A DNA stretch of 64,000 nt from Chloroflexota bacterium (GCA_030603665.1 JAUVXJ010000013.1:23910-87909), one strand, 5' to 3'. Positions 412-17,532 are shown, counted from the stretch's first letter. Program-made: numbers and translations. The notes: generated by a model not told the origin, from the sequence alone.

Positions 412-555
412 GTCTCTCCTCCAGACGTATCCTGTGTACCCTGCCTCGTCCTCATCGAGATTCTTCCGAAGTACCATAGCCAGTTTATCAGAGAATCTGC
501 GCCCTGTCAAGTTGTTCCGCTTCACATACTATTACGCAACGGGCTATTCCTTGTC

Positions 556-1684
556 AAGCCAAGCACAACACCCGTTCCAGCTCCATTGCCGTATTTGCGA
601 CCCACACGCCCAGGCGTGCAGCTACTAAATGCGGCAGAGCATCCAGGCTGACCGAGCAAACAGTACCAGGCAGCCAACATAGTGGTGCCAGCCTGCAAGA
701 AGGAATTGCCGACTCGCGCCATCCAGCGTAGAATAGGCCGGTCTCACAGGCTACAGATGGACCACCAAGCTGAAGGATGCTCCACATGTCCTGGAGTGTT
801 GTCCACAACGTCCTCATGACTGGACCGCCCGGGGCCGGCAAGACTCTCATGGCGCGGTCCTTGCCTTCCATCCTGCCCAGCATGACCATCGAGGAAGCCC
901 TCGACGTGACCAAGATCTACTCTGTCTCGAGCCTGTTGCCTCCTGAGACCCCCCTCATCCGCCACCGTCCTTTCCGCGCCCCCCACCATACCATCAGCCA
1001 CGCGGGTCTCGTCGGCGGCGGCCAGTGGCCTCGCCCAGGGGAGATCAGCCTGGCCCACCACGGCGTCCTCTTCCTGGACGAGGTCCCAGAGTTCGGCACC
1101 CGGGTACTAGAGGTGATGCGCCAGCCCATGGAGGACAAGGTGGTCACCATCAGCCGGGCCCAGGGTACCCTCACCTTCCCAGCCAAGTTCACCCTGATAG
1201 GAGCCATGAACCCCTGCCCGTGTGGCTACTTCGGAGACCCTAGCCGGGAGTGCACCTGCGCCCTGTCCATGGTCAGCCGGTACCAGAAGCGCCTCTCGGG
1301 ACCTCTGCTGGATCGCATCGATATCCACATCGACGTACCCCGGGTGGATTATGAGAAGCTAACCGACGATCGTCTGGGCGAGCCGTCGGAGGCCATCCGC
1401 AAACGCGTGGAGAAGGCCCGCCGCGCGCAGCGCCAGCGCTTCGAGGGCACGCCAATGACCTGCAACGCAGACATGGGCCCGGCCGAGGTTAGAGAGTATT
1501 GCCAGGTTGACGACGCGGGAGGGAGCCTGCTGCGCGCGGCCATGGAGCAGCTGCAGATGAGCGCCCGAGCTTTTCACCGGGTGCTCAAGCTGGGCCGCAC
1601 CATCGCCGACCTGGCCGGGTCGGAGACCATCGAGACCGCCCACCTGGCCGAGGCTATCCAGTACCGGCCCAGGACGCACATGTA
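556..1684 (+). repeat. Direct repeat, copy 1 (about 1.13 kb), comprising a roughly 250-bp leader plus a truncated comM-like CDS. It pairs with 14126-15262.
   Basis: By eye the leader is about 80% identical to copy 2 and the CDS about 97%. Similarity begins at gtcaa(g/c)ccaagcacaacacccg and ends exactly at the stop codon. Confidence 0.85.
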
Positions 1685-1685
1685 G
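777..1685 (+). CDS. comM: YifB/ComM-family Mg-chelatase-like AAA+ ATPase, N-terminally truncated form (AAA+ core and C-terminal domain only, no Lon-like N domain)
   Basis: It carries Walker A GPPGAGKT and Walker B VLFLDEVPEF. The PCPCGYFGD...CTC zinc motif and the C-terminal Mg_chelatase_C-like region are present. The start coincides with strand beta1 (HNVLMTG). Confidence 0.8.
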   Translation: MLHMSWSVVHNVLMTGPPGAGKTLMARSLPSILPSMTIEEALDVTKIYSVSSLLPPETPLIRHRPFRAPHHTISHAGLVGGGQWPRPGEISLAHHGVLFLDEVPEFGTRVLEVMRQPMEDKVVTISRAQGTLTFPAKFTLIGAMNPCPCGYFGDPSRECTCALSMVSRYQKRLSGPLLDRIDIHIDVPRVDYEKLTDDRLGEPSEAIRKRVEKARRAQRQRFEGTPMTCNADMGPAEVREYCQVDDAGGSLLRAAMEQLQMSARAFHRVLKLGRTIADLAGSETIETAHLAEAIQYRPRTHM

Positions 1686-2086
1686 GGCGGCGCGAGGACG
1701 CGCTGGCCAGAGTCAGTCGTTGTTCACCCTTCGAGGGGCGGCAAATGGCTGTGGCTGAGCGTGATCCCGCCGAGTAGTGCACGCGCTCCGGCATACGGGC
1801 AGTGCAGGGCCTGCGGGGATTCTGACATCTCCCGCGTATCTGCGGCTCACCATAGAGCAGGATGCTCAACCTTGCCACTGAGCTAGCCTATGTCCGCTTG
1901 CTCCGCTCTCGCGCGGACGAGACGTGGTCCACGTAGGCAGCCCTGGGCAATGGAGGTCAACTTGTGATAGCGGTGCTAAGTCGGTGCATTCTTGGCCATG
2001 GCCCTATGCGGCCAGCGTTGCTCACGTAGGTCAGGGATGGGCACCCTTTCGTGTGTCCCAGAGGTCCGGCGGAGAGGAGAGGATTG

Positions 2087-2368
2087 ATGGCGCATTGTCT
2101 GGTCACCTGCGACCTATTCAGAGCTGATCTCGACAGCCTGCCCCGCAAGATCCAAACTCGCACCGTAGCGAAGTTCCCCTTTCTCGAACGAAACCCGCGC
2201 CACCCCAGTCTGAACAGCCACAGGGTTCACGCTTCTCCCAGTGGCAGAGACATCTGGGAATCGTACGTAGACAAGACGAGGTACCGAATCCTGTGGGAGT
2301 TCCTCCCGGGACAGGACCTTGCCCTCTGGCGCACGCTCACAGAGATATCATTCAGCGGGCAGCACTGA
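2087..2368 (+). CDS. RelE/ParE-family type II toxin-like protein (orphan; no antitoxin ORF is evident upstream)
   Basis: CDLFRADLDSLPRKIQTRTVAKFPFLERNPRHPSLNSHRVHASPSGRDIWESYVDKTRYRILWEF fits the RelE/ParE pattern (KDLkkLpk..q.ri...i..L.enP..p.l..h.L.g.....we.rv.dyRIi). The region is lower in GC. Confidence 0.5.
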   Translation: MAHCLVTCDLFRADLDSLPRKIQTRTVAKFPFLERNPRHPSLNSHRVHASPSGRDIWESYVDKTRYRILWEFLPGQDLALWRTLTEISFSGQH

Positions 2369-2841
2369 ATGGCGAACATTGAGTCAGGTTGCGGATGGTC
2401 CGGTCAAATCAATGTCCGGGTCGCAGCCTTGACTCATGTAGGTAGCCGAGCTAGAATAGACTCGCGAGGCTGTGCACTATGCCACCCTCATCTCTGAGGA
2501 TCCACTGCCATGCAAGATGACATTGACTTCAGCCCCCAGGTGCGCTCTTGCATCGTGAGTTCCTGGAGTCTGCATCAACCGATGACACAGCAGACCTCGA
2601 TCAAGGCAGGGCAAGGATGAGACCCAAGACCTGGACGCGAAGTACCGAAACTGTGGTGGGTTGTGCTATTGCGCGAGCCCGTGTCCATATGCGCTCAACC
2701 TGACCCTTCCCTTGAATAGCACAAGGTTTCGATGAGAGAATCCTAGCTTGACCAGGGATTCCGTGAACTGGGCATCTGCAGAACAATGGAACAACCAGTT
2801 TTCGTTGGTCAGTTCTTGATGGGCAAGGGGGAGTTCTCACC

Positions 2842-3780
2842 ATGGAGGTCCTGACTGGTGTATTCATTGTCGCGCTCTATAGGACAATGGAGAAGATTTG
2901 GGAGAAGAGCTTCGACGCGGCGTGGGAGCCCGTAGACGACACATTGAAAGCCAGATTCACCATTTGGGCTGGAAGTGGCGACGAGCGGAAACGCCGCATC
3001 GCCTTCGGAAGGGCCGCAGGCAAAGCCCGGAACTTGACCCTGCTCAAGGCTGAGGACGATCCACTGCAGAGAGTGCAGACAGAGCTGGTTCTCAAGGTAC
3101 TAGACGAAGGGCTGACGGACAGCGCTGCTGAGGAGTTGGCTGAAGAAGCTGCCAAGCTCATACTTTTCTCGGAGGACCCAGACATCGCTCGCATGACGAC
3201 ATACTGCCAAGAGCGCCTGAAGTGGGATGTGCTATGGTCTGGGGGTGAGCGCCCAGAAAGCAACGCCGTAACAGCCGTCTTAACTGCATTTCTGGACAAC
3301 CTGCGGGGATCGTTGCTGGACCAGGAGATCTACCGTGACGTTATGCACGACAAAGAACTGCTGGGGTTGCTGGGGAAGATAGCGCATGACCAACACCGCA
3401 CCGCAGAGGCCACGGTTCGGTGGTTGGAGGCGTCTGAGGACGCGGGACCGGCACCGGCCAGCATTGTGTGTGCGAAGGCTGTTAGTAGAGCCTCAATGCA
3501 AGGGGCAAGACTACTTGACGCCTCCAGCCAAAGACCTTTGCCACGAAGATGTCGTAGCCGCCGTTGTAGGTTCTGTCGAAGGCCCCGGGCGTCGTTGGAA
3601 AGCCTGAACACTCAGTGTGACCGGTCACATATGCATCACCCCCGGTATCCACAGCAATGCCGAAGGCAACGGACCAGCACCAGCTGCCACCCAGCCATTG
3701 GCGGAATACCAGGTCTGTTCCAGCCTCATTCAGCTTCGCCACGAAAGCCATGGCGTAGCCCGGCCCGGCAGAACCCGTGA
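2842..3780 (+). CDS. Hypothetical protein. The 3' end is uncertain, because the reading frame runs 300 nt into the convergent SBBP gene.
   Basis: It is a long ORF with coding-like composition over 2842 to about 3480. It has no NTPase or other recognisable motif. The last roughly 100 codons are Arg/Cys/Pro-rich junk, antisense to real SBBP repeats. Confidence 0.3.
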   Translation: MEVLTGVFIVALYRTMEKIWEKSFDAAWEPVDDTLKARFTIWAGSGDERKRRIAFGRAAGKARNLTLLKAEDDPLQRVQTELVLKVLDEGLTDSAAEELAEEAAKLILFSEDPDIARMTTYCQERLKWDVLWSGGERPESNAVTAVLTAFLDNLRGSLLDQEIYRDVMHDKELLGLLGKIAHDQHRTAEATVRWLEASEDAGPAPASIVCAKAVSRASMQGARLLDASSQRPLPRRCRSRRCRFCRRPRASLESLNTQCDRSHMHHPRYPQQCRRQRTSTSCHPAIGGIPGLFQPHSASPRKPWRSPARQNP

Positions 3781-5725
3781 TGTATGCCGAGCCCCTCTGA
3801 TCCACATCAATCGCCCCGGGCCATGAGCAGACTCGCTGTCCCAGGTATTGCCATCCCATGAAGGTGCTGTATACCAGGCCCGTACCATTGCTGTTCAACT
3901 TCGTCACGAAAGTATCAAGATCCCATTCGTCCTCACCCGCGTAGGTCCTGCAGAATGCTCCAGGCGTGGTCGGGAAGTCGAAAGAGCTCGTATAGCCAGA
4001 GACATAGGCTTCGCCTGCTGAGTTAGCGGCGACCCCGCCCCCAAAATACGAGTCGACGCCATCATTGTAGCTTCCTCCCAGCAATGTGCAGTACTCGAGA
4101 TCAGTGCCAGAAGGGTTCAGCTTGGCCACAACAGCGTCACTCTCACCATCCCGCGTTCTGTCGAAGGCACCGGTAGTTGTGGGGAACGTCGTCGAGCGCG
4201 TCCAGCCTGCCACATAAGCCGACCCTGTGGGATCCACCGCAACTCCCAAGGCTTCGTCGAAGTCGCTTCCTCCCAGAAACGTGCTGTAGACGAGATCGCT
4301 TCCGCTGGGGTTCAGCTTGGTGATGAAGAAGTCGGCGGTACCTCCGTTGTACGTGCTGTCATAGGCGCCAACCGTTGTGGGGAATCCAGAGCCCGCCCGG
4401 CCCGCCACATACGCGGAGTTGTCGTCGCCTATCGCGATCGAGAATCCTGTGCCGCCGCCGAGCGAAGTGCTGTAGACTAGGTCGCTTCCACTGGGATTCA
4501 GCTTCGCCACGAAGGCACCGCTCCCCGTTGCGTATGCCCCCGGTGTGGTTGGGAAGTCGGACGAGCCCGAGCCAACGACGTAGGCGGCGCCCGAAGCATC
4601 GACCGCTATGTCGTAGCTACGGTCGTCTCCCGACCCGCCGAGAAGGGTGCTGTAGACGAGAGCCGTGCCGTTCGGATTCAGCTTGGCCACGAAGACATCT
4701 AATCCTCCTCCATGGCTCGGGTCAAAGGAACCAGGAGTGGTGGGGAAGCCCGACGAGTATGTCTCGCCCGCCACGTAGGCAGCGCCAGAACCATCGACGG
4801 CAACCACCGCGCTTTGTGCCACTGGATCCGGCCACGGCTCGCCCACCGTGCCAAGGAAGGTGCTGTAGAGAAGACTGAACGAGCCCTCTGCCAGATGGGC
4901 GTCGCTACCACTCGGAACCCTGTCGGTGAATGGAGACAGGATCTCGAAGCTTCCTTCTCCGCGCTGGTAGATGCAAGGTTCGGCACTGACGTCGAACTGC
5001 TCGACTGACAACAAAGGCAAGGCCAAATCACCCAGCGTAGTACCCACCAGCAAGTGATCGGTGTCCGTCTGCACCCCAGTTGCACCATCCAGCCGCAGTC
5101 GAACAGCACTACTGTCGGAGTCCGGAGCCATGGCTGCGCGCAGCATCAGCTGACCATTCTCGCTGCTGACCTCAAGATCAATGCCAGGGTACAGGTCTTT
5201 GTAGCGCACACCGGCCCAGGCTGCTACTCCTATGTGCCACTCAGACGGTGCGTCACCGGTCAAATAGGATACGAGAGTGTCTTGCCTATTGAAGCCGACG
5301 AGTGCAGGATGAGGGTTGGCACCAACGAAGGTGACCTTGAGGCTCACGCCACGCAACTCTGCGGCCGCACTCTCCGCCGACCGATTGAAGAGCTCTCGCG
5401 ATGCGCCAAGACCTACCGAAGCACGAGAGGGCCGCGTGAGCGAGAGCCACATCGCATTCTCGGTAAGGGACAAGGACGCTCCGTTACCGACCGCTTGGAA
5501 CCGCACCTGGGGATCATACTGGCCAGCATTCTCCACGAACGCGGACAGCACAACGCTAGGTAGGCCGGTCACCTCCGCGCGGGGAGTTCGAGAGGTGTTA
5601 CCGGACTGGACGGCACTGGGAGGCTGCTCCATTGTGCGCGAGCGTGCTGCTGACCAGACCGCTGGGCACGAAGCCACGAGCAACGCGAGCGCAAAGAGGA
5701 ACCTAGGCAATCGTCTCAGCTCCAT
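3482..5725 (-). CDS. Secreted SBBP (beta-propeller repeat, PF06739-like) repeat protein
   Basis: It has an N-terminal signal peptide, MELRRLPRFLFALALLVASCPAVWSAA. About 8 copies of ...G.AYV.G.T.S.DFPTT.GA.D.......D.FV.KLN..G..L.YST.LGGS... continue through to the C-terminus. Confidence 0.7.
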   Translation of the reverse strand: MELRRLPRFLFALALLVASCPAVWSAARSRTMEQPPSAVQSGNTSRTPRAEVTGLPSVVLSAFVENAGQYDPQVRFQAVGNGASLSLTENAMWLSLTRPSRASVGLGASRELFNRSAESAAAELRGVSLKVTFVGANPHPALVGFNRQDTLVSYLTGDAPSEWHIGVAAWAGVRYKDLYPGIDLEVSSENGQLMLRAAMAPDSDSSAVRLRLDGATGVQTDTDHLLVGTTLGDLALPLLSVEQFDVSAEPCIYQRGEGSFEILSPFTDRVPSGSDAHLAEGSFSLLYSTFLGTVGEPWPDPVAQSAVVAVDGSGAAYVAGETYSSGFPTTPGSFDPSHGGGLDVFVAKLNPNGTALVYSTLLGGSGDDRSYDIAVDASGAAYVVGSGSSDFPTTPGAYATGSGAFVAKLNPSGSDLVYSTSLGGGTGFSIAIGDDNSAYVAGRAGSGFPTTVGAYDSTYNGGTADFFITKLNPSGSDLVYSTFLGGSDFDEALGVAVDPTGSAYVAGWTRSTTFPTTTGAFDRTRDGESDAVVAKLNPSGTDLEYCTLLGGSYNDGVDSYFGGGVAANSAGEAYVSGYTSSFDFPTTPGAFCRTYAGEDEWDLDTFVTKLNSNGTGLVYSTFMGWQYLGQRVCSWPGAIDVDQRGSAYITGSAGPGYAMAFVAKLNEAGTDLVFRQWLGGSWCWSVAFGIAVDTGGDAYVTGHTECSGFPTTPGAFDRTYNGGYDIFVAKVFGWRRQVVLPLALRLY

Positions 5726-6023
5726 CCCTGACCTCCTTCACGCGGACGTCGCGTTTCCGCGGTGCCGCTCCTTGCAGGCGAAGCAAAACGGCCTCGCTGA
5801 GATGACGCGCCGCAAGTCGGCAGATGGGTCATCAGCAGGATCCGCCTGTCACACGCAGGATGCGGCCCTCCGGCGACCGATTCCCTTGTGGGCTAGGTCC
5901 GCAGCGGTCTGGTGCGCATTCGCTGCAACAGATGCTGGATCGTAAGCTATCGATATCGAGACCTCTTCTGCCGCGCGCACTGGTACAGGGGTGAACTGCT
6001 CGGTTAAGGGATTGACAACAGGT

Positions 6024-9000
6024 TCATCGTGTCGCCTTGTGCAGTCCTCGCCAGAGTTGCACCCCCGCCGGCAGTACCAACACTAGGGGCAGAGCAGCGC
6101 CCCAACACGGCCCGCGTCCGCCAGTCGTCGGCGTTGGCTCCAAAGCAGCTTCGGCAACCTCCGTCGTAGCCTCCGTGGCAACGCCAACATCCACGTCGCC
6201 TGTCAACTTCCCTCCATCCCCTGTCAACACGAAAGCTGCCCAGTAGTATGGATGCGGATACTCTGCTCTCACATCAATCTGTGCCTGACGTAGCGCCTCC
6301 GCTTTGCCCATCCCGGCACGAAGATGAGTGTAGAACCGCTCCATCAGCAGCGCCGTCGCCTCGTCATCGACGCTCCACAGGCTGGCAAGCACGCTCGGCG
6401 TTCCAGCGTAGAGGAACGCTCGACTCAAACCCACCACTTCATCACCTGCGCTCAACGTGCCGAGTTGCGTCTGGCACGCGCTGAGGACTACCAGATTGGT
6501 GGCTGCCGTCAAGTCTAGTCCGTAGACTTCGTGGACTTCCAGACGGCCGTCGTTTTGGGTATCTTCTGCCAGATAGATTGTGCTGAACAAGGGGTTGTTG
6601 CGGTCGTATTCGCCATGGGCTGCGATATGCAAGACACCTGCACCGCCACCCTGTGACCACACCACACTTTCCGTAGCGTCTTCTCCCGTCATGGCCTGCG
6701 TCCCGAAAAGTGCTGCGATGCTTATGGCTTCCTGTTCGGCAAAGCGCAACGCAGGCATTGGCTCGACAATGGTTGGATTGCCTAGCGCTAGCAGGTTGCC
6801 AGATTCGGACTTGCATTTCCCCTTAACGAAGGGCAGTAGGCTGGCACTGGGTAGGGTGAACAAGCCATGGTCGTCGCTCAGATACCTGTCGCCATCGGTG
6901 AGGGCGGCAAAGGGAAGGTAGTGGAGCACGTTGTGGGGGACAATCCCGAGCATCGAGGTGGTCAGATATGCTCTCAGCGGGGAGATGAGCCAGGCATAGA
7001 GTTGTTGCAGACTGGCCGGGTGGGGATCCTCCAGCCTGGCGAAATCCCGGAAGATTGTGATGGTCTCCGTTAGGTCTTCGCGACTGATGTCCAGCGCTAG
7101 GGCATTGAAGGTATCATGGGTGATGATGAAGGCCAGTGTTCGTCCTTCAGTTACGAAGTATTCGACCAATGTGGTGTTGGCGTCAAGCAGACCTTGGATC
7201 TCAGCCAACGAGGCCACGTCGACGCTGACGAGCGAGGCGAGCTCAGAGCTCTGTAGTTTGAGTTCGATCAGCAGGGCTTCGTAGTCTGCTTCAAGAGTGA
7301 TGAGCTCAGCTTGCGTGTCCATGATCGCACTAGTGTCCCGTTGCTCACGGGGACGATTGCGAAGAGTCACTAGTTGGGCGCGTCGCGCTGCGATTTCCGC
7401 GCGAAGCGTCTGCTCTTGGTCTAGCAGTATACGGGGGGCTCCGGCTCGGAAGTCTACCAGGCCACCCGCAAGTTGGTCGAGGAGTGCCCTTGCTCGAGCA
7501 CGCTCCGCATACTCGAAGGCCTCTTGGAGGCGACCCTCTTCCCAAAGGAGGTTGACGAGACGATCGTACACCGCGACCTCTTGAGCTGCATAGGTTCCCT
7601 TCAGTTCTGGGATCCCGATCTCTTTCTGAATGGACTCGACGACATCAGCGGCCTGCTGGTAGAAGGCGATCGCCTCTGAAACAAGACCGAGTTGCTCGTA
7701 TGCCAACCCAATCTTGTTGAGTGTCTTTCCTTCCCCCCTCCGGTCGCCGATCTCCTGTTGGATAGCCAGCGCCCGCTGGTGATAGTCAAGAGCCTGCTCA
7801 TTTTCGCCCAAGCTCCCGTAGACTGAGCCGATGTTGTCGAGCGTGTATCCTTCCCCGGCCCGGTCGCCGATCTCCTGTTGGATAGTCAGCGCCCGCTGGT
7901 GGTAGACCAGAGCCTGCTCATGTTGCCCCAGGGTCCAGTAGATCGTCCCAATGTTGTAGAGCGTGTTTCCTTCCCCGGCCCGGTCGCCGATCTCCTGTTG
8001 GATAGCCAGCGCCCGCTGGTAGTAGTCCAGAGCCTGCTCGTATTGGTTCGGACTCTCGTCGGCCCCGATGCTGTCCCGCGTGGCTGACTCGTCCGTCTGG
8101 TCGCCAGTGTCCTCGAGAGCATCATCGTGCCGGTGGTATACTAGACCAATGTTGTTGAGCGTCGTTGCTTCGCCCATCCGGTCGCCGATCTCTTGTTGGA
8201 CAGCCAGCGCCCGCTGATAGTACTCCAGCGCCCGGTCGTCTTGCCCCAAGTAGTCATAGACCAGACCGATGTTGTTGAGCCCGGATCCTTGTCCCAGCCG
8301 GTATCCAATCTCCTGGTAGACGGCCAGCGCCTGATGAAAGTAGACCAGCGCCTCCTCGTATTGGCCCAGGCTCCAGTAGACTGCCCCAGTGTTGTTGAGC
8401 GTCAGTGCTTCGTCCGCCGGGTCCTCGATCTCCTGTTGGATGGCCAGCGCCCGCTGGTGGTAGTCTAGAGCCCGCTCGTATTGGCCCAGGAGCCAGTAGA
8501 CTACACCGGTGTTCTGGAGCGTGGCTCCTTCCCCCGCCCGGTCTCCGATCTCCTGTCGGATGGCCAGCGAGCGCTGGTGGTAGTCAAGGGCATGATCGTA
8601 TCGGCCTAAGCTCCGGTAGACTGCCCCAATTGCGTTGAGCGCCCTTCCTTCTCCCGCGCGGTCGCCGATCTCCTGTTGGATAGCCAGCGCCTGCTGGTGG
8701 CAGTCCAGAGCCTCCTCATTCTGGCCCAAGTTCCCGTAGACTGTCCCGATCCTGTCGAGCACCGTTCCTTCGTGCCGCCGGTCGCCGATCTCCCGTTGGA
8801 TAGCCAGCGCCCGCTGGTAGTAGTCCAGAGCCTCCTTGTATTGGCCTAGGCTTGAGTAGATCGCCCCGATGTTATGCAGCGTTGCTCCTTCTCCCTCCCG
8901 GTCGCCGATCTCCTGTTGGATGCCCAGCGCGCGCTGGCAGTAGTCCAGAGCCTGCTCGTACTGGCCCACGCTCGCGTAGAAGGCAGCAATGTTGGCGAGC

Positions 9001-9389
9001 GTTGTTCCTTCTCCCTCCCGATCGCCGATCTCCTGTTGGATGCCTAGCGCCCGCTCGTAGTAGTCCATCGCCTGCTCATCCTGCCCCAGGTCGTAGTGGA
9101 CCACCCCGATGTCGTTCAGCGCCTCTGCTTCCCCCGCCCGGTCTCCGATCTCCTGTCGGATAGCGAGCACAGCTTCCAACGTACTAAGTGCTCCCTGGTA
9201 GTCTGCGTCATTATAGAGGCCGACGGCTTCCTCATAGAGGGCATCGGCCTGTGCCTGCGGATCATCCTGAGTGGCTGGAGTAGCGGCGATTTGGGCTGGA
9301 AACAGGGCCAGAACTAGCGTCGCGACCAGCAGCCAGGCACCTATGCAATTGACCCACAACTTCCTCAGACTACTGCCGCTCCTCTTCAC
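6024..9389 (-). CDS. Exported TPR-repeat protein with a C-terminal CHAT (caspase-like) protease domain and a C-terminal hydrophobic anchor-like tail
   Basis: It has a signal peptide, MKRSGSSLRKLWVNCIGAWLLVATLVLALFPAQIAA. About 13 TPR_12-like 40-42 aa units follow (YEQALDYYQRALAIQQEIGDRAGEG.TLNNIG.VY). It then has a CHAT core, with the His-Cys catalytic dyad in LHIAAHG...LVVLSACQT...PYYWAAFVLTGD. It ends in GGRGPCWGAALPLVLVLPAGVQLWRGLHKATR. Confidence 0.85.
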   Translation of the reverse strand: MKRSGSSLRKLWVNCIGAWLLVATLVLALFPAQIAATPATQDDPQAQADALYEEAVGLYNDADYQGALSTLEAVLAIRQEIGDRAGEAEALNDIGVVHYDLGQDEQAMDYYERALGIQQEIGDREGEGTTLANIAAFYASVGQYEQALDYCQRALGIQQEIGDREGEGATLHNIGAIYSSLGQYKEALDYYQRALAIQREIGDRRHEGTVLDRIGTVYGNLGQNEEALDCHQQALAIQQEIGDRAGEGRALNAIGAVYRSLGRYDHALDYHQRSLAIRQEIGDRAGEGATLQNTGVVYWLLGQYERALDYHQRALAIQQEIEDPADEALTLNNTGAVYWSLGQYEEALVYFHQALAVYQEIGYRLGQGSGLNNIGLVYDYLGQDDRALEYYQRALAVQQEIGDRMGEATTLNNIGLVYHRHDDALEDTGDQTDESATRDSIGADESPNQYEQALDYYQRALAIQQEIGDRAGEGNTLYNIGTIYWTLGQHEQALVYHQRALTIQQEIGDRAGEGYTLDNIGSVYGSLGENEQALDYHQRALAIQQEIGDRRGEGKTLNKIGLAYEQLGLVSEAIAFYQQAADVVESIQKEIGIPELKGTYAAQEVAVYDRLVNLLWEEGRLQEAFEYAERARARALLDQLAGGLVDFRAGAPRILLDQEQTLRAEIAARRAQLVTLRNRPREQRDTSAIMDTQAELITLEADYEALLIELKLQSSELASLVSVDVASLAEIQGLLDANTTLVEYFVTEGRTLAFIITHDTFNALALDISREDLTETITIFRDFARLEDPHPASLQQLYAWLISPLRAYLTTSMLGIVPHNVLHYLPFAALTDGDRYLSDDHGLFTLPSASLLPFVKGKCKSESGNLLALGNPTIVEPMPALRFAEQEAISIAALFGTQAMTGEDATESVVWSQGGGAGVLHIAAHGEYDRNNPLFSTIYLAEDTQNDGRLEVHEVYGLDLTAATNLVVLSACQTQLGTLSAGDEVVGLSRAFLYAGTPSVLASLWSVDDEATALLMERFYTHLRAGMGKAEALRQAQIDVRAEYPHPYYWAAFVLTGDGGKLTGDVDVGVATEATTEVAEAALEPTPTTGGRGPCWGAALPLVLVLPAGVQLWRGLHKATR
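7560..9200. repeat. Intragenic tandem repeat array (about 120-126 bp units) encoding the TPR units of the CHAT protein
   Basis: The near-identical 40-mer ccggtcgccgatctcctgttggatagccagcgcccgctggt recurs about every 120 bp (for example near 7741, 7861, 7981, 8656, 8776, 8896, 9016). One divergent unit with an acidic insertion lies near 8040-8160. Confidence 0.8.
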
Positions 9390-10471
9390 TGGCTCAAATC
9401 CCCGAGACGTTCCTCCAACTCGGTCACTCGTTGCGCATCCCCCAAGACTTCGTATCCAGCAAGCGCCCGCTCCAGCCAGCGTACTGCGTGGTACACATTC
9501 CCCATCTTTCCATACATTTCCCCTAATCCAGCCTGCGCCGCCGCTTGCCCCTCTACATCTCCGGCGGCCTCCGCCAGCTCGACGGCCGTCGAGTATCGAG
9601 CCTCAGCCTCAAGGCTGACTCCAATGTGCCGATAGAGATCGCCCAACGTCCGGTAAACGGCCGCGGACTGGCTCCCAGCCTGCACCAACCTTTCGAGAAT
9701 CTCGATCGCTTCGGCAGTGAGATCATAGCCAGTGTAGAGCTGAGCCAAGCCAAAGGCTTCCGCGTCAGGTGTCAATCCCAGGTCAGCGAGTCTGCCAGCA
9801 GCGGCCCGCACGCGTTGGGCGTCATTGGCATTGAGCAAGGTGAGCCCCAGTCCAGGCACATCTTCATCCTGAGAAGATGCGCCATTGTCGGCTTCAACAA
9901 TGAGTAGATAGGTAGCCCCAGATTCGAGGGCTGGCTCACCCGGATAGGTCACACCAGACTCATCCGTCATCGTGCTCCAAATGATCCGGCCCGTGTTGGT
10001 GCCCTTGATCTGCACACTATAGATGGATGCACCTGGGATTTCATTCCAGCGCAGTATCGGCGTACCACTCAGGAGCTGAGTTCTCCGTGGGCTGATGATG
10101 TAGGGAATAGAGGGATCACCTACGCCGCGAGTACTGCCAAGCCCGCTTCCTTCACGCATTCGCGCAGTTTCCTCTGGCGCCGGGCAACCATTCATCACGC
10201 CAGATACCTTGCCGGCGAGCGGAGACCAGGCGGTAAGGTCGTCACAGAGGACAATTGCCCTCGCCTCGCTCGTCGGTTTCAGCAGGTCCCCGCGATGGAG
10301 CACTGCGCCAAAGGCCGTACGGTGGTAGTCCGACCACACCCCGCGCCTCAACCACACTTCGCCCTCGGCCACTATCAGCAGATTGACACTGCTGTCAGCG
10401 GGGGCAGCAGGAGTTGGCTGACTACAAGAGCCAGCAAGAGCTATCGGAATCAGTATCAGTGCTATCGACAA
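9386..10471 (-). CDS. Secreted hypothetical protein with a C-terminal TPR-like helical region, in the CHAT operon (4-bp ATGA overlap with the downstream gene)
   Basis: It has an N-terminal hydrophobic signal, MSIALILIPIALAGSCS. The middle looks beta-rich and the C-terminal helical region is Ala/Leu-rich. Its stop overlaps the CHAT gene start. Confidence 0.55.
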   Translation of the reverse strand: MSIALILIPIALAGSCSQPTPAAPADSSVNLLIVAEGEVWLRRGVWSDYHRTAFGAVLHRGDLLKPTSEARAIVLCDDLTAWSPLAGKVSGVMNGCPAPEETARMREGSGLGSTRGVGDPSIPYIISPRRTQLLSGTPILRWNEIPGASIYSVQIKGTNTGRIIWSTMTDESGVTYPGEPALESGATYLLIVEADNGASSQDEDVPGLGLTLLNANDAQRVRAAAGRLADLGLTPDAEAFGLAQLYTGYDLTAEAIEILERLVQAGSQSAAVYRTLGDLYRHIGVSLEAEARYSTAVELAEAAGDVEGQAAAQAGLGEMYGKMGNVYHAVRWLERALAGYEVLGDAQRVTELEERLGDLSQ

Positions 10472-10497
10472 AGATGCTGCGCGTCTGATCGTTCCTC

Positions 10498-11700
10498 CTA
10501 TTCTGCTTCCAGGCGTTGGCTAGCGAATCCGATCCATGCATCTTCATCTGGGTTGCGTGCACTGGCAAGTCTCAGGCAGTCTTCCCATTCAGGCCGAGCA
10601 CGTGCTGCGTCGCCCAGGCCTTCCAGCACCTGGGCGAGCAAACAGTGAGCAGGGGCCTCGTCCTTCGCCAGATCAATGGCGCTCCGTAGGTGATACTCTG
10701 CCTCGTCATAGCGAGCTTGGCCCAGTCGTGCCCAACCCAGGTTCTTGAGCATGTCGTACCTCACCTGGTCCTCCTCGGCGAGGTCTAGACCGCTCAACAG
10801 CAGGGAGACAGCTGCCGCATAGTCTCCGTCCAGCACGTATAAGCGAGCGAGGTTGTTGTAAGCCGCGTCGAGCCCGCCTTGCATCGCAATCCTGTACTCC
10901 GTGCGGGCAAGGTCGAGATCGTGCAGATCTTCGTATAGCAGCCCTAGGTTGTAGTGAGCTTCCGCGTAGTCAGGCCTGAGTTTGATGGCCCGGGAGTAGT
11001 CAGATTGGGCGCTATCCCATCGACCGCCACGGTAGTTCTCCAGACCGCGGTTGTTGTAGGAGACCGCGATCCTTGGCAAGGAGGAACGGAAAAGCATCAG
11101 GCCAAGCAAGAGTACCATCGTGAGGCCAAGCTCGGTTTCCTGCCACGCACTCCTAGGAATACGCAGACTCATGAGTATCCGCTCGATCGCCTTCCGCCCA
11201 GATGTACTCAGCGCGCCCCCAGCTACCAGCATGGTCACCACAATCTGAGCGATGACCGCAAAGACCCCCAGCGCATCTGGACCGTCAGCTAAGAACCTCC
11301 AGGAGATATCCACTATCAGGCTCAAGGATGCTATCAGGCACAGAACAGCCAGGACGCTCCACAGCCAATCGAGGCGTGCCGCCCGCTGAGGCTGCTTGGA
11401 GGTCTCAAAGAACCACCACCATGCCTCGGGTGATGGATTCAACGTGCTGCGCCATTGCGACAGTCCCGCCACCTGGGCGATAGACTCAGATTGCTTCCTC
11501 AGCCGGTCATCTAGCTCGACAAGGGTGATCAGGGTGTGCGCGGAGTCCTGCGTCTTGTCAGTCAATCTTGCGTGAACGGCATCGCGAGCGACAAGGGCTT
11601 CAAGAGCTTGCTCGGCTGATGGATGGGGGGCAGCGTCTTCCAGCACAGTGAGCTTGCTGCCATAGCGTCTGAGGGCACGCTCCAACTGCGAGGCAGTCAT
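10498..11700 (-). CDS. Membrane-anchored TPR-repeat protein, first gene of the CHAT operon
   Basis: It has three predicted TM segments (LWSVLAVLCLIASLSLIV, VFAVIAQIVVTMLVAGGAL, LGLTMVLLLGLMLF). C-terminal TPR motifs follow (AIKLRPDYAEAHYNLGLLYEDL...). It lies 26 bp upstream of the next gene on the same strand. Confidence 0.6.
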   Translation of the reverse strand: MTASQLERALRRYGSKLTVLEDAAPHPSAEQALEALVARDAVHARLTDKTQDSAHTLITLVELDDRLRKQSESIAQVAGLSQWRSTLNPSPEAWWWFFETSKQPQRAARLDWLWSVLAVLCLIASLSLIVDISWRFLADGPDALGVFAVIAQIVVTMLVAGGALSTSGRKAIERILMSLRIPRSAWQETELGLTMVLLLGLMLFRSSLPRIAVSYNNRGLENYRGGRWDSAQSDYSRAIKLRPDYAEAHYNLGLLYEDLHDLDLARTEYRIAMQGGLDAAYNNLARLYVLDGDYAAAVSLLLSGLDLAEEDQVRYDMLKNLGWARLGQARYDEAEYHLRSAIDLAKDEAPAHCLLAQVLEGLGDAARARPEWEDCLRLASARNPDEDAWIGFASQRLEAE

Positions 11701-12378
11701 TTGCTACCTCCTTCAAGGTAGGGAGACTGCATCCTTCGACTGACGTGTGAGCTCATTCCCATGTGCGGGCAACTTCCCTACTCTAGGGACGGCGGTCACT
11801 TGGCTGCCGGAGTAGAGCCGAAGTCACTGGATGATAGCACAAGTAGAGAGAGAGGGCAAGCCAGGTTGCCTATAGTGGAACGAGGCCCCGCTGTTGAGGA
11901 GAGAATGTACCAGAAGGTTTGATCAACCTCTGTATCTCGCAACGGGGCCTCAAGGGGATTCTAGCAGCAACGCCCATCGTCGGCAATCGACTCCCTCTCG
12001 ATACGCTTGACCTCTCGCTGAAACAACAGTGCTGACGCTGCACGAGCGGCTTGGTGTTCCGGGTTCAACTGTAGCACCGCTTGTAGAAAGCACCACTTGT
12101 CCTCAACGTCGTCGGTCTCTGCTGCCAGCCACAGCCAGGCGTGGATCACAAGGGGGCGGGGGCGGCGGACGAATCGGACCTTGAGTTTGGCCGCAGTGGT
12201 ACGGAGCTGGTCAAGCTTGGGAAGGCGGGAGCATCACCGATAGTGGAACCGTTGACCATGCCCAGCGGACGCGGCAAGAATCTCAGATCGCACGGGATGT
12301 CTTGGGGCGGAATGACAGATCACTACAGCGTTCAGGGTATCCCTCGGTCCTCACGGCAGCCGGGGCATGTTGCCTGCG

Positions 12379-12678
12379 CTAGATCAGGCCTTGACTCAGT
12401 TTCTCGTGCAGCATCTCCTCGTAGTCGGGGCCGGTAAGAGTGCAATCGACAAGGTGGTCGAACTCGTCATGGTTGAGCTGAAGATCCTTCCTGACAGATT
12501 CCTGAAAACCGATTCCCCACTCGCCACGCCCCTTTGGGACTCGGACCTTGAAGCGTTTCCGTCCCTCTAGGACAACCCAGTAGATCTCCTCTTTGCCGGA
12601 TCTGTACTGGCCCGGTACCTTCTTGTCCACCGCCGATCGGACTTTCTGCTTACGATATCTTTTCGCTCTTGGCGACAT
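12379..12678 (-). CDS. Small basic hypothetical protein (possible toxin-like partner), last gene of a 3-gene module
   Basis: It is an ORF with an Lys/Arg-rich N-terminus, MSPRAKRYRKQKVRSAVDKK. It lies immediately downstream of the HicB-like gene with an overlap, and I recognise no family. Confidence 0.35.
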   Translation of the reverse strand: MSPRAKRYRKQKVRSAVDKKVPGQYRSGKEEIYWVVLEGRKRFKVRVPKGRGEWGIGFQESVRKDLQLNHDEFDHLVDCTLTGPDYEEMLHEKLSQGLI

Positions 12679-13252
12679 AGTCTCGAAGTACCCTCGACCA
12701 AGCCGTGGGGAGCTTGCCAAGTTCTTCCGGGTCGGCCTCAGTCAGTTCCTCGTATAGAAGTATGACTTGGTCCTTGAGGTCATTGACTGCCTCAGCAGGC
12801 GTGGTGCCCCAGCCGCGGGCCTCCACTTCCAGGAACGTCGCGACCGCTTCGTCGCGGTACTCTTCGACCACGACGGGAATCGGATGCCGGAGGGAGTATG
12901 ACGATGAGTTTAGATCAACGATCGCGGTGCTGGTCACGACCGGTCTACTCAGCAATGCTTCGCTTAGCTCCAATACTGCACCCTCCAGCCTCTCCAACCT
13001 GTCTTCGAGGTTGGCCGGCGTGCGGGTGCCAAGCTCCCCCGTGCGCATCATGGAGAGCCACTGCTGGCCGAGTGTGGGCCACTCCTGAGAGTACTCTAGT
13101 GGTAGGATGTCCGTCGACAAGGCAACCGGATCCTCCCAATGACCCTCGTCGTACTTCAACACCAAGCGTACCGATTCGCCAATCTTCAGGGTGCCGCGGG
13201 CGATTGTGGGGTCGTCCTTCCACGCACCGTCCAGTTCTTTCCACTCACTCAT
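12650..13252 (-). CDS. Hypothetical protein with a C-terminal HicB-like (UPF0150 / RNase-H-fold antitoxin-like) domain
   Basis: The C-terminus IPVVVEEYRDEAVATFLEVEARGWGTTPAEAVNDLKDQVILLYEELTE matches the HicB pattern. The likely true start is MSEWKELDGAW, which gives an 8-bp overlap with the upstream gene. Confidence 0.5.
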   Translation of the reverse strand: MSEWKELDGAWKDDPTIARGTLKIGESVRLVLKYDEGHWEDPVALSTDILPLEYSQEWPTLGQQWLSMMRTGELGTRTPANLEDRLERLEGAVLELSEALLSRPVVTSTAIVDLNSSSYSLRHPIPVVVEEYRDEAVATFLEVEARGWGTTPAEAVNDLKDQVILLYEELTEADPEELGKLPTAWSRVLRDYVAKSEKIS

Positions 13253-13895
13253 CTGGCCCACCAAACTCCTTCGAAATACCCGCCGCGAATCGCAGGACGT
13301 CACTAGGCAGCTCTGGCGTGAATCTTGACAAGTACTCAAACGATATCAAATGTCTCACCGTGTCGGCCTTAGGTGGTGCATGATCGATGATTATGTCATA
13401 CAAGTGTGCTTCGTCTCGCACCTTGGCCAAGTGCACCCCTCGGATATCGGTGTAGGGCAATCTCGTTGCGTGACCGACTACAAGAGGCATGGGAACACAC
13501 GAGACATATTCGCTCGCTCGATATCGGAAACTGGCTCGGCAGTCGAACGCGTGCTCCTCAGGCATGTCAGAAAGCATGTGTAGCATGTCAAGCACGGGTC
13601 TTGTCCCCTCGGGCACTGGCACAGATGCCGTCGTGCCAACCGAATAGGTCAAAACAAGCCGATATTCTTCACCTCCTGGTTTGACCTGGACAATGCTACC
13701 CAAGCAGGCGTGTTCGACCCGACTCCTCCGGTACTCAGTATAGAAGAAAGCGACGCTTCTGCCTGAGGAGGCTCTCACCGCGTATTCGACCAGTAGGTCG
13801 GTGAAGGATGCGGAATCGAGCTCTAATAGGGCCTCAAGGGCCAATTCCGTAGCAGATGATCGTACTAGGTCGAGTCTTGAGGGGTCGCTAGCCAT
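13245..13895 (-). CDS. Hypothetical protein, first gene of the 3-gene module
   Basis: It is a 216-aa ORF with coding-like composition. Its stop overlaps the next gene's start. I recognise no motif. Confidence 0.4.
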   Translation of the reverse strand: MASDPSRLDLVRSSATELALEALLELDSASFTDLLVEYAVRASSGRSVAFFYTEYRRSRVEHACLGSIVQVKPGGEEYRLVLTYSVGTTASVPVPEGTRPVLDMLHMLSDMPEEHAFDCRASFRYRASEYVSCVPMPLVVGHATRLPYTDIRGVHLAKVRDEAHLYDIIIDHAPPKADTVRHLISFEYLSRFTPELPSDVLRFAAGISKEFGGPDE

Positions 13896-14125
13896 TAGCG
13901 CTCGATGGCGAGGTAGTTCGCGGGCGTCATTAGATTCTTCGCTCTCACGGGCGTCCGCATTGTCTTGCGCGACAGCATACGAGCAGGAAGCCCGTTGGAT
14001 GGCGCTTCCCGAGCACTACACGATCGCCCGCTCAGTGCTGACGCAACCGCCAGCTCACCATACGCAGAGTCGGGCGAATCACATGCCGGCGGACTCACTG
14101 CCAATGGAGACATTGTACATCGATT

Positions 14126-15262
14126 CTCCAAGAATGTCAACCCAAGCACAACACCCGCTCCAGCTCTACCGCCGTATTTGCGCTCCACACGGGCAGGCGT
14201 GTGGCTACTGCGGTAAGGCACCCAAGCTGACCAAGCCCACACTATGAGGCAGCCAAAATGTGGTGCCAGCGTGGCAGAACGAATTGCCGCCCCGCTCGAT
14301 CCAACGTACAATGGGTTGGCCTCACTGACTATAGATGTATCACCAAGCTGAAAGGCGCTCCAGATGCGCTGGAGTATTGTCCACAACGTGCTCATGACTG
14401 GACCGCCCGGAGCTGGCAAGACTCTCATGGCGCGGTCCTTGCCTTCCATCCTGCCCAGCATGACCATCGAGGAAGCCCTCGACGTGACCAAGATCTACTC
14501 CGTCTCTGGTCTGTTGCCCCCTGAGACCCCCCTCATCCGCCACCGTCCTTTCCGCGCCCCCCACCATACCATCAGCCACGCCGGTCTCGTGGGCGGCGGC
14601 CAGTGGCCTCGCCCAGGGGAGATCAGCCTAGCCCACCACGGAGTGCTTTTCCTGGACGAGGTCCCAGAGTTCGGCACCCGGGTGCTAGAGGTGATGCGCC
14701 AGCCCATGGAGGACAAGGTGGTGACCATCAGCCGGGCCCAGGGTACCCTCACCTTCCCAGCCAAGTTCACCCTGATAGGAGCCATGAACCCCTGTCCGTG
14801 TGGCTACTTCGGAGACCCTAGCCGGGAGTGCACCTGCGCCCTGTCCATGGTCAGCCGGTACCAGAAGCGCCTCTCGGGACCCCTACTGGACCGCATCGAC
14901 ATCCACATCGACGTGCCGCGGGTGGATTATGAGAAGCTAACCGACGATCGTCTGGGCGAGCCGTCGGAGGCCATCCGCAAGCGCGTGGAGAAAGCCCGCC
15001 GCGCACAGCGCCAGCGCTTCGAGGGCACGCCAATGACCTGCAACGCAGACATGGGCCCCGCCGAGGTTAGAGAGTATTGCCAGGTCGATGACGCGGGAGG
15101 GAGCCTGCTGCGGGCAGCCATGGAGCAGCTGCAGATGAGCGCCCGAGCCTTCCATCGCGTGCTCAAGCTGGGCCGCACCATCGCCGACCTGGCCGGGTCG
15201 GAGACCATCGAGACCGCCCACCTGGCCGAGGCTATCCAGTACCGGCCCAGGACGCACATGTA
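14126..15262 (+). repeat. Direct repeat, copy 2 (pairs with 556-1684)
   Basis: See copy 1. Confidence 0.85.
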
Positions 15263-15263
15263 A
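14364..15263 (+). CDS. comM: YifB/ComM-family AAA+ ATPase, truncated form, second copy
   Basis: The protein is identical to copy 1 apart from the first 6 residues and one S/G change. Nearly all nucleotide differences are synonymous. Confidence 0.8.
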   Translation: MRWSIVHNVLMTGPPGAGKTLMARSLPSILPSMTIEEALDVTKIYSVSGLLPPETPLIRHRPFRAPHHTISHAGLVGGGQWPRPGEISLAHHGVLFLDEVPEFGTRVLEVMRQPMEDKVVTISRAQGTLTFPAKFTLIGAMNPCPCGYFGDPSRECTCALSMVSRYQKRLSGPLLDRIDIHIDVPRVDYEKLTDDRLGEPSEAIRKRVEKARRAQRQRFEGTPMTCNADMGPAEVREYCQVDDAGGSLLRAAMEQLQMSARAFHRVLKLGRTIADLAGSETIETAHLAEAIQYRPRTHM

Positions 15264-15508
15264 GTCTGTCGGCTTGTTGCGACGCTCTGGATGCGCGATG
15301 AGGAGCATCGCCAACTCGCGCAGACAGGAGTGTTACTACTGGTGCGTTCGATGGGCCTAGCCCAGGGGGTTCTGCCCGAGAGGGTGGCAATCTCAGTTCC
15401 GCAATCTCATTGGGAGGGGCGGCGTCAACCCAGAAACGGCAGATTTCTGGACCTCTGCGCAGTATCGCGGAGACAGATGAGGAGGTTGGATCACCAAGGA
15501 GGAGAGAG

Positions 15509-16213: not shown

Positions 16214-16360
16214 TGCCCCTGTACCAAGCGAGGGGGCGGCAAAGGGGCCAGCAAGCAGCAGTGTCCTGGTCTCCGGTATCGGACCGCCGGCTCCCATGGC
16301 AGCGGGCAGACGGGGCCCTCAAGGAGCCGCCCAGTCGACGCGCGCGAAAGGAGAGTCCAA

Positions 16361-17365: not shown

Positions 17366-17532
17366 AACGGTCGCCGCGAACCAGGCGGGGTGGAGTAGGT
17401 GTGGTTCAGAAGCAACCGGATGCGGTAACCCCGCCGTCCCTCGCGCAAGGCAGCGCGATGTGCTAGAGTCACAGTGAGAGACGTTTTGGAACGCTTGTAC
17501 TCATCAGATATTGGACCGAAGGAGGTAGCAGA

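Follow-up and report, generated by a model that had tools for sequence, protein, structure and literature searches.

Split genes that are re-joined when a recombinase element excises are known in sigK (skin), spsM (SPbeta) and comK (a Listeria prophage), and some integrative elements, e14 and phage 21 in icd among them, carry a replacement part of the gene they enter. Attachment sites of large serine recombinases (LSRs) show dyad symmetry around a core. Acinetobacter comM is the home of AbaR/Tn6022-type (Tn7-like) islands, which move by transposition with TnsABC-type machinery. The closest described systems are LSR elements in magnesium-chelatase-like or comM genes (Durrant et al. 2022, PMC10083194), so that the general phenomenon is already known; of the predicted site-specific LSRs, 12.4% target homologs of magnesium chelatase and ATP-dependent protease, and LSR targets are enriched in competence genes (PMC10083194). 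The locus analysed here, within a 64-kb stretch of DNA called the window, shares with those elements the target gene family, insertion inside the gene at a single conserved nucleotide, a Resolvase- and Recombinase-domain protein beside one junction (here in relatives), and a dyad-symmetric attachment site with a shared core. It differs in that only the attR side is present, twice, the junctions share a long core (at least 15 nt), the element end is predicted to restart transcription and translation of the downstream half, and the Anaerolineae family concerned is so far uncharacterised. We consider it fairly probable that two repeats in the window are tandem attR-type junction modules of LSR elements, each made of an element end and comM codons 213-506.

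The repeats lie in direct orientation at 552-1685 (copy A) and 14135-15263 (copy B). By blastn, 552-1684 matches 14135-15262 at 92.1% identity over 1133 nt, and no third copy was found within the 64-kb window. In both, comM codons 213-506 come after a leader of about 250 nt. The leaders (552-803 and 14135-14381) are 80.2% identical over 247 aligned nt, with 5 gap positions, and the comM-derived parts (804-1685 and 14382-15263) are 95.9% identical, with 36 differences in 882 nt, 35 of them synonymous and 1 non-synonymous; the longest stretch free of mismatches between the copies is 104 nt. Homology stops at the stop codon, TAG in A and TAA in B. The encoded proteins, 299 aa from ATG 786 and 299 aa from ATG 14364, are 98.7% identical. 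Pfam detects Mg_chelatase (PF01078, 279 bits), running from profile position 21-23 to 206 of 207, and Mg_chelatase_C (PF13335, 117 bits), and the Walker A sequence GPPGAGKT is present. NCBIfam model TIGR00368 (YifB) scores 372.9 bits against a cut-off of 362.4, over profile positions 211-499 of 499. The N-terminal Lon protease-like ChlI domain (PF13541), found in full-length comM relatives, occurs in neither copy nor anywhere else in the 64-kb window, and no comM 5' half was found within the window or joined to either copy. The first-pass annotation had described two direct, 5'-truncated comM/yifB copies with leaders of about 250 nt and about 80% identity, coding regions that start at the Walker A strand and lack the Lon-like half, and repeats that end at the stop codon; all of this agrees with our results. 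Features are collected in Table 1.

Table 1. Features in and around the two comM-derived repeats, in window coordinates.
Feature	Position	Strand	Details
SocA/Panacea-domain ORF (cargo A, next to leader A), runs off window	1-477	-	Pfam PF13274, 30.3 bits, cut-off 25.7
Two promoter-like sites reading left into cargo A	482-557	-	TTGACA-18-AATAGT and TTGACA-17-TAAACT
Leader A, left part	552-637	+	X motif (552 to ~611) and 52-bp imperfect palindrome centred at 611/612
Outward sigma-70-like promoter, leader A	706-734	+	TTGCCG-17-TAGAAT
Short comM copy A, 299 aa (P0001)	786-1685	+	Six leader-encoded codons (MSWSVV), then comM codons 213-506
Putative attR-type junction A	791-818	+	Element arm CTGGAGTGTTGTC, then core CACAACGTCCTCATG (804-818)
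Accessory genes between modules, including small unannotated ORFs	1686-11807	.	
SBBP/DUF7948 propeller	3482-5725	-	Pfam
CHAT-TPR gene	6024-9389	-	Pfam
Two TPR genes	9386-10471, 10498-11700	-	
W+IG unit	11808-12230	-	Small TPR-like ORF (12230 to 11958) and promoter-bearing intergenic stretch
Cargo B	12379-13895	-	Three ORFs of 113, 229 and 216 aa; no family assignment
Strong promoter-like site into cargo B	14112-14140	-	TTGACA-17-TACAAT, 11/12 matches, at X outer edge
Leader B, left part	14135-14217	+	X motif and palindrome CCACACG-GGCAGG-CGTGTGG
Outward sigma-70-like promoter, leader B	14284-14312	+	TTGCCG-17-TACAAT
Short comM copy B, 299 aa (P0251)	14364-15263	+	MRWSIV, then comM codons 213-506; putative native-locus copy
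Putative attR-type junction B	14369-14396	+	Element arm CTGGAGTATTGTC, then core CACAACGTGCTCATG (14382-14396)
Native comM downstream flank	15264-15338	+	Homologous to 75 nt past the stop of the intact comM of L002

The comM part begins at the core CACAACGTGCTCATG, which encodes HNVLM and lies directly 5' of the Walker A codons, and many Chloroflexi ComM N-terminal halves terminate at this core too. Five short copies that are independent of one another (window A, window B, and those of related loci L018/L026, L001 and L035) have an identical junction: in all of them CACAACGTGCTCATG comes right after an arm ending in ..GTC. Among 136 database proteins (120 N-terminal-half matches plus 16 cluster members), 37 lose homology to ComM at residue 216-220, just past HNVLM, and the tails beyond often read xW(T/S).., which corresponds to TGGAC.., an inverted copy of the ..GTCCA arm. 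The core at the ends of N-terminal halves in L034, L031 and many database proteins is that of junction A, and one such protein, P0129, has a tail (YWTILQ) that corresponds to the junction B arm read in antisense. The junction arm of L035, GGTTGGGGTATCGTC, is the reverse complement of the L034 arm, GACGATAGCCCAAC, at 13 of 15 positions, which gives the attachment site dyad symmetry about the shared core. The symmetry is imperfect, with inverted-repeat arms ..TATTGTC / GACGATA.. on either side of CACAACGTGCTCATG, and attP can be reconstructed as ..CTGGAGTATTGTC CACAACGTGCTCATG TACTGGACAATACTCCAG... The target gene is cut at the same nucleotide in independent genomes and is uninterrupted in relatives.

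The actual integration junction coincides with the 5' edge of the comM parts (804 and 14382), not with the outer edges of the repeats. It follows that 1686-14134 is not a discrete island with attachment sites of its own; the element or elements continue past the left edge of the window. The first-pass annotation had read the arrangement as one genomic island of about 12.4 kb in comM, the truncated copies being direct repeats made by, or used for, integration. Accessory genes are indeed bracketed by direct repeats, comM is a known hotspot, and the segment is missing in relatives. A target duplication of that kind nevertheless sits poorly with repeats of 1.13 kb that include 250 nt of non-comM element DNA and differ at 8% of positions (dS 0.17), with a conserved junction on the inner edge, and with the lack of both a comM 5' half fused to either copy and an integrase in 1686-14134; we regard a single island as very unlikely.

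Evidence for the recombinase comes from relatives. In L034, a 518-aa protein containing Resolvase and Recombinase domains is encoded right after comM(1-217), and L031 retains a 135-nt relic of the C-terminus of that recombinase at the same place. Because this other junction in L034 adjoins the LSR gene, and because the arms are inverted repeats, the leader is taken to be the right end of the element. Within the window, the scanned ORFs of 1-19.4 kb and the nine largest ORFs further along showed no recombinase or transposase domain; the first-pass annotation had likewise described the DNA between the copies as free of integrases and transposases. We infer that the window's own elements have, or formerly had, an LSR. 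No attL-type site was found within the 64-kb window, both ends of one element were seen together in none of the loci examined, and viral contigs yielded no related sequence. The putative proximal element, 803-14380, encodes no recombinase, an observation that counts against the explanation we favour. As with the AbaR/Tn6022-type islands, comM is interrupted by accessory DNA, and ComM probably no longer functions in natural transformation as a result; unlike those products of transposition, the junction here has the symmetry of a recombinase site, and scanned ORFs in and near the region contain no Pfam domains of TnsA/B/C-type transposition genes.

Related loci show several states of the site. 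Intact comM occurs in L002, L003, L005, L006 and L020. That of L002, at 506 aa and 90.7% nucleotide identity, has the 75-nt downstream flank in common with copy B, and that of L006 shares 94.8% identity with the L018 short comM. Only the N-terminal half is present in L031, a locus syntenic with window positions 16313-21592, the synteny picking up again at 16313. L026/L018 contain a single leader with a short comM, L035 has a short comM and two more comM fragments, and L020 has three relics besides its intact gene. For this clade, the earlier description of comM as an integration hotspot is borne out by such site variants.

On the reading of the repeats as junction modules, each would consist of the last ~250 nt of an LSR mobile element that split comM at the core, just ahead of the ATP-binding motif, and the two would derive from two related element variants. 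Copy B would be the native comM 3' half with its ancestral downstream flank retained, and copy A another comM 3' half, derived from a related lineage (dS 0.17) and embedded in accreted DNA. The 12.4 kb between the modules, with the CHAT/TPR operon, the propeller and small ORFs, would be cargo, while the other junction, beyond the window, would have the recombinase gene together with the 5' half of comM (codons 1-217). A single LSR integration duplicates no 880 nt of its target, and copy A therefore demands an extra, putative step. It probably came in with an element, which may have happened by single-crossover recombination of a circle carrying a leader and short comM, or by arrival of an element that brought a replacement comM 3' part, after which a second LSR insertion took place at the site so regenerated.

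The second route recalls e14 and phage 21, in which a displaced native 3' fragment is found at the far end of the insert and a second copy at the near end. Copy B with its native flank fits the displaced copy, and the relic arrays of L020 and L035 resemble repeated use of a regenerated site. Copy A, however, is preceded by a second element end and is not fused to the 5' part of the gene, so comM is not restored at present; the duplicated part is also 880 nt plus a 250-nt leader, and the recombinase is of a different type. With sigK, spsM and comK the locus shares a conserved gene cut by a serine-recombinase element, both halves intact and under purifying selection, but here there are two 3' halves, only one of them re-joinable, and the sequence gives no indication of excision.

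Absence of the 5' half from the 64 kb could also be explained if an LSR had recombined the comM site with an attP on the same chromosome, causing a large inversion or translocation, with the tandem copy arising later by homologous recombination; the comM halves would then be far apart, with no discrete element between them. The candidate half P0129, whose tail is antisense to the window arm, is on a different, 215-kb NCBI contig, and gene order around the N-terminal half in L031 is rearranged relative to L005. P0129 may nevertheless belong to another genome, and copy A is explained no better than by junction modules. We judge such a rearrangement quite improbable.

Leaders and coding regions give conflicting trees. 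Leader A is closer to the L018 leader (87.3% identity) than to leader B, and the leader tree places A with L018 and B outside. The coding sequence of A, by contrast, falls with B and then L002 (90.5% identity to A), L018 being distant (81.5%, dS 1.08). Judging from these sequences, leader history appears to follow the element and coding sequence history the host. Between the two coding sequences dS is 0.17, with a dN/dS of 0.009, and leader divergence, at about 0.2, is near dS; with such a dS, the copies are not products of one integration event. The -35 box, -10 box and spacing of the outward promoter are unchanged among A, B and L001, and promoter (17-nt spacing), ribosome-binding site and in-frame ATG are kept across leaders just 64-87% identical. 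This combination within an element end is why gene callers report a 299-aa "short ComM".

Such conservation might suggest an independent functional gene family, duplicated in place with both copies selected and the intervening DNA inserted later. The low dN/dS between A and B at similar leader divergence, the conserved expression signals, a dN/dS of about 0.05 for short versus full-length comM that equals the full-length versus full-length value, and the lack of frameshifts and internal stops in all short comM copies would all fit. Yet the leader tree conflicts with the coding tree, and each short copy is closest to a full-length comM (L002; L006), which makes the short form a recurrent product and not one clade. 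The first ~20 positions of the Mg_chelatase domain are missing, as is the Lon-like domain, which is reported from cryo-EM to be needed for ComM oligomerisation and DNA translocation (PMC11612176). We hold a dedicated short-ComM family to be quite unlikely; the strong coding conservation more probably reflects, for the most part, evolution as intact or re-joinable comM than the function of a short protein alone.

No match to 1686-11807 was found in any fetched related locus. Pfam confirms the propeller and CHAT genes named in the first-pass annotation, while its "RelE-like" and "HicB-like" labels find no support in Pfam, NCBIfam, PHROGs or PADLOC. The GC contrast between the segment (56-62%) and its flanks (about 60-65%) is weak. 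A Panacea gene is found at the cargo A position beside X in L026/L018 as well, with 32% identity over 47 aa only. The W+IG unit, here upstream of the TPR/CHAT operon, is directly upstream of comM in L006, L020 and L034, and is a dispersed repeat in L012, L018 and L030. Such a repeat could have joined alleles or loci of related strains during assembly: the tandem order is known from one contig, which is metagenome-assembled, and a dS of 0.17 is typical of related strains. The contig runs through both copies in full, however, and their four flanks all differ; identical runs between the copies reach at most 104 nt, W+IG is single-copy in the window, and the independent relatives L035 and L020 have tandem comM pieces too. 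An assembly artefact is accordingly considered very improbable.

The junction-module reading in its simple form leaves the X motif and the 52-bp palindrome at the left of the leader unexplained. X occurs in at least 17 distinct related loci, the palindrome has dyad symmetry at 17 of 26 positions (maximum 16 in 500 shuffles), and the outer edge of X at copy A is the first leftward -35 box (TTGACA). Elsewhere in relatives, X and palindrome abut comM at codon 354. A joint reading, that the ends of comM-targeting elements evolved to re-express the AAA+ core (299 aa) and that related elements carry replacement comM pieces, is conceivable but doubtful. Were it true, the 299-aa protein could poison ComM hexamers, blocking transformation-mediated removal of the element, or alternatively act with a separate N-terminal half as a split helicase. 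Replacement pieces would regenerate attachment sites, giving arrays of elements and relics at two or more comM sites, among them codon 218 and, marked by X and the palindrome, codon 354. In leader B, the minus strand at 14185-14197 reads CCTGCCCGTGTGG, identical to the CPCG-coding comM stretch of copy A (1213-1225).

The metagenome-assembled Anaerolineae (Chloroflexota) contig of 98.8 kb from which the window is taken carries a direct repeat of 1.13 kb; blastn finds exactly two copies in the window, A and B, with no third, and aligns them at 92.1% identity over 1133 nt. Each copy consists of a leader of about 250 nt (80.2% identity between A and B over 247 aligned nt) followed by 882 nt of comM (95.9% identity, 36 differences), colinear with codons 213-506 of full-length ComM/YifB, and homology between the copies ends at the stop codon, TAG in A and TAA in B. 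Both encoded proteins contain Mg_chelatase, from profile position 21-23, and Mg_chelatase_C; a domain search detected no Lon-like ChlI domain in the protein of either copy, and the alignment of model TIGR00368 to these short proteins starts at profile position 211. No comM N-terminal half was found in the 64-kb window by tblastn with a full-length relative as query. The observation of two direct, truncated comM/yifB copies in the first-pass annotation is thus borne out by blastn, domain search and tblastn. Its placement of an integration hotspot at comM was right in spirit, but the model of a genomic island bracketed by the repeats was wrong in detail.

Coordinates of features in the window
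Feature	Position (nt)	Strand	Remarks
Copy A unit	552-1685		direct repeat, 1.13 kb (blastn)
Copy B unit	14135-15263		direct repeat, 1.13 kb (blastn)
Sigma-70-like promoter, leader A	706-734		TTGCCG/TAGAAT, 17-nt spacing
Sigma-70-like promoter, leader B	14284-14312		TTGCCG/TACAAT, 17-nt spacing
ATG, leader A	786		
ATG, leader B	14364		
Promoter-like site at X edge, cargo B side	14140 to 14112	minus	11/12 matches
Panacea-domain ORF, left of leader A	477 to 1	minus	
Three ORFs, left of leader B	13895 to 12379	minus	no family assignment
W+IG unit, beyond cargo B	12230 to 11808	minus	
CHAT-TPR gene	6024-9389	minus	
120-nt periodic repeat in CHAT-TPR gene	7697-9274		ten copies, 60-74% identical
Variable spot downstream of comM	15339-16312		native comM flank to L031-syntenic block
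PEP-CTERM protein gene	15410-16213		
Helicase and RNase_H_2 superfamily genes	20651-24221	plus	
Sequence aligning to B12-binding-domain and URO-D-type genes	~32.6-35.2 kb		
MtmB homologue	37762-39147	minus	full length, no internal stop codon

The comM part of all short copies starts with CACAACGTGCTCATG (HNVLM). The element arm before this core reads ..CTGGAGT(G/A)TTGTC, or ..GGTTGGGGTATCGTC in the related locus L035, and the uninterrupted comM site reads GGC CACAACGTGCTCATG ACTGG. Among 136 proteins examined in a search for ComM N-terminal halves (120 matches plus 16 cluster members), 37 have ComM homology that stops at residue 216-220, just past HNVLM; their tails often have the form xW(T/S).. 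(YWTILQ, YWTIAQ, LWTTSH, FWSKSR), which corresponds to TGGAC.., an inverted copy of the ..GTCCA arm. At locus L034, the gene directly after such an N-terminal half encodes a large serine recombinase of 518 aa, with Resolvase and Recombinase domains, and the arm there, GACGATAGCCCAAC, matches the reverse-complemented L035 arm at 13 of 15 positions. A 135-nt relic of this recombinase's C-terminus (10608-10742) adjoins comM(1-217) in L031, which has lost the comM 3' half and everything else of the element. A shared core, arms in inverted repeat and a recombinase gene at one junction are together what is expected of a serine-recombinase attachment site that has been divided into attL and attR, and the window leaders appear to be attR-side element ends. 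The other junction would read from comM codons 1-217 through TACTGGACAATACTCCAG into the serine recombinase gene; the recombinase and the 5' half of comM, together with that junction, would lie beyond the window.

This reading agrees with a published survey, according to which 12.4% of predicted site-specific large serine recombinases target magnesium chelatase/ATP-dependent protease homologues and the targets are enriched in competence genes (PMC10083194). Since serine-recombinase elements in comM-like genes are known to be very common, the Anaerolineae example adds no new principle: the feature is a further, untidy case of a known phenomenon, although a putative attachment core with its arms is now defined for an uncharacterised recombinase family. 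Viral contigs scanned with the X motif described below, both junction patterns, short ComM and the L034 recombinase yielded nothing relevant, a match involving L025 being due to chance.

The short genes do not appear to form a separate family. The short proteins have their closest homologues among ComM proteins of 506 aa; the full-length relative P0002 is 95% identical to them in protein sequence, and its gene in L002 90.7% identical in nucleotides. The unit of leader plus short comM occurs also in other Anaerolineae (L001, L014/L018/L026, L035, P0256, P0260 and P0263), with proteins that start MLPMSWGIV|PNVLMTG in L001 and MVQGGWGIV|HNVLMTG in L035 and the three database proteins. In each case the closest coding relative of a short copy is a full-length gene: short L018 is 94.8% identical to full-length L006, and the window copies are 90.5-90.8% identical to full-length L002 but only 81.5% to short L018. 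Leader A, conversely, is 87.3% identical to the L018 leader (leader B, 76.4%). These identities point in opposite ways, which argues that the leader moves separately from the coding sequence and has become attached to the comM genes of different hosts, always at the same nucleotide. The 299-302-aa "magnesium chelatase family proteins" from Chloroflexi metagenomes would then be recombinase junction products rather than a short ComM family.

The first ~60 nt of each leader form a conserved motif, designated X. Between X and the junction, every leader contains a sigma-70-like promoter with a fixed spacing of 17 nt, a purine-rich ribosome-binding site, and an ATG followed by six to nine codons in frame with comM codon 213. 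The positions of all three signals are invariant though the leaders are only 64-87% identical, which suggests that the element end restarts expression of the downstream gene half from the predicted promoter and ribosome-binding site. On the opposite strand, the outer edge of X supplies a TTGACA -35 box, giving promoters directed into the adjoining cargo genes. Should the conserved promoter and in-frame restart be selected for a truncated ComM, they would be relevant to the proposal that natural transformation is manipulated by mobile elements so as to escape deletion. Other identities for the leader were rejected. A group II intron end, a riboswitch or a tRNA-type attachment site finds no counterpart in Rfam matches, of which window and leader have none, or in tRNA and tmRNA genes, absent from the window. 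Derivation from comM would rest on a 13-nt match to the CPCG-coding stretch; a coding leader, on minus-strand ORFs (554-913 and 13895-14491) that are not conserved; a coding X, on a frame, (M/V)ELERVLCL(G/A)*, without a start codon in half of the loci. A small transposon with terminal inverted repeats and a CACAAC target duplication would require a comM 5' half before the leader, and there is none; for an invertible promoter switch between two CPCG-type 13-mers, no locus occurs in the flipped state.

X is conserved in at least 17 distinct related loci, and in many of them it comes after comM fragments whose common end is at the NPCPCG codons (residue 354), a hot spot seen also in N-terminal halves that end ..NPCPCG|AQMRQ*. 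X serves in the window and in L018 as the left arm of an imperfect 52-bp palindrome whose dyad matches at 17 of 26 positions, against a maximum of 16 in 500 shuffles, and the break point in the relic loci lies 3-4 nt from its center. X and its palindrome could serve as attachment site for another recombination system, or as an operator placed between the two divergent promoters; at none of the loci with X was a recombinase found beside it. When database proteins P0129-P0248 are aligned to P0002, the ends of the Chloroflexi ComM N-terminal halves recur at four positions, ~218 (HNVLM|), ~324 (RQPLED|), ~344 (ANFML|) and 352-354 (NPCPCG|), a pattern that suggests several distinct attachment sites within Chloroflexi comM. 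Of these features, the X/palindrome site and the conserved signals for restarting the gene half deserve closer attention.

The 75 nt after the copy B stop codon match the post-stop sequence of intact comM in L002, and the window from 16313 onward is syntenic with L031, which carries a comM N-terminal half at the same locus. For copy A, all homology is gone at the stop codon. Copy B, then, is probably the native comM copy, and copy A would be embedded in accreted DNA. Just downstream of comM is a second small variable spot, occupied in the window by a PEP-CTERM protein gene, in L002 and L005 by a 182-aa ORF, and in L031 by two Big_7 genes.

To the left of the two leaders lie different cargo genes. 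Beyond cargo B is W+IG, a small TPR-like ORF (..RPRPLVIHAWLWLAAETDD..LQLNPEHQAARA..) with a promoter-bearing spacer, which heads the TPR/CHAT operon in the window, lies directly upstream of comM in L006, L020 and L034, occurs twice in each of L012, L018 and L030, and behaves as a portable unit. In L026/L018, a single module of W, cargo, X, leader and short comM abuts chromosomal genes whose counterparts are found at 29.5-36 kb in the window. The different cargo, the flanks and these single-module relatives together suggest that two junction modules, derived from two variants of the element, are present in the window. Between the Panacea genes of the window and L026 the relationship is no more than distant, and the 216-aa and 229-aa cargo ORFs, considered as homologues of the post-X ORFs in L020, proved not homologous. 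PHROGs, PADLOC and NCBIfam assign no function to the small cargo ORFs; the ORFs at 2601-2867 and 12379-13339, previously labelled RelE-like and HicB-like, have no match above the thresholds applied for Pfam, NCBIfam, PHROGs and PADLOC. The L026 contig ends, right after W, in an IS3-family-like transposase N-terminus (8648-8716). The 120-nt periodic repeats inside the CHAT-TPR gene are probably tandem TPR units of the protein.

Because one serine-recombinase integration would not copy 880 nt of its target, copy A needs another route. A circle carrying leader, short comM and ~12.4 kb could have entered by a single homologous crossover with a resident module, which would leave repeats bounded by the conserved module edges, the start of X and the stop codon. 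Alternatively, an element bringing a replacement comM 3' part would regenerate an intact gene and attachment site, at which a second element would then insert. Both routes fit the anatomy. A recent duplication in place is made less likely by the divergence of A from B and by the disagreement between leader and coding trees, and four distinct flanks, with no identical run longer than 104 nt, count against a simple misassembly. A simple inversion of an ancestral [X-cargo-W-comM(1-212)] was rejected, as the inverted comM(1-212) it predicts is absent left of 11808. Relatives suggest that pile-ups of comM pieces recur at this locus: L035 (82-2818) has a short comM, a comM(305-354)+X relic, a 305-aa gene and comM(348-506), and L020 (154-11857) has three comM relics upstream of intact comM with different ORFs after each, at least two of the three being followed by X and different cargo.

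Between copies A and B there are 35 synonymous changes and one non-synonymous change (dS 0.174, dN/dS 0.009), and pairs of short and full-length genes show dN/dS of ~0.05, equal to that of full-length pairs. Low dN/dS does not prove that the short protein works alone: leaders move between hosts, so the divergence may mostly predate the split, when the 3' halves belonged to intact comM genes of different lineages. Cryo-EM work reports that ComM needs its Lon-like domain to oligomerise and to translocate DNA (PMC11612176); the short protein, besides having no such domain, is missing the first ~20 positions of the AAA+ domain. The short protein may function independently; the alternatives are a recent insertion, or a split gene re-joined by excision.

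Elsewhere in the window, two successive genes resemble an MrfAB-like repair pair: the first encodes a DEAD/HRQ1-like helicase that carries an MrfA zinc-binding domain, the second a member of the RNase_H_2 superfamily. Near a homologue of MtmB (monomethylamine methyltransferase) there is sequence alignable with B12-binding-domain and URO-D-type genes of L026, in a stretch syntenic with that locus, so a corrinoid methyltransferase system may be present.
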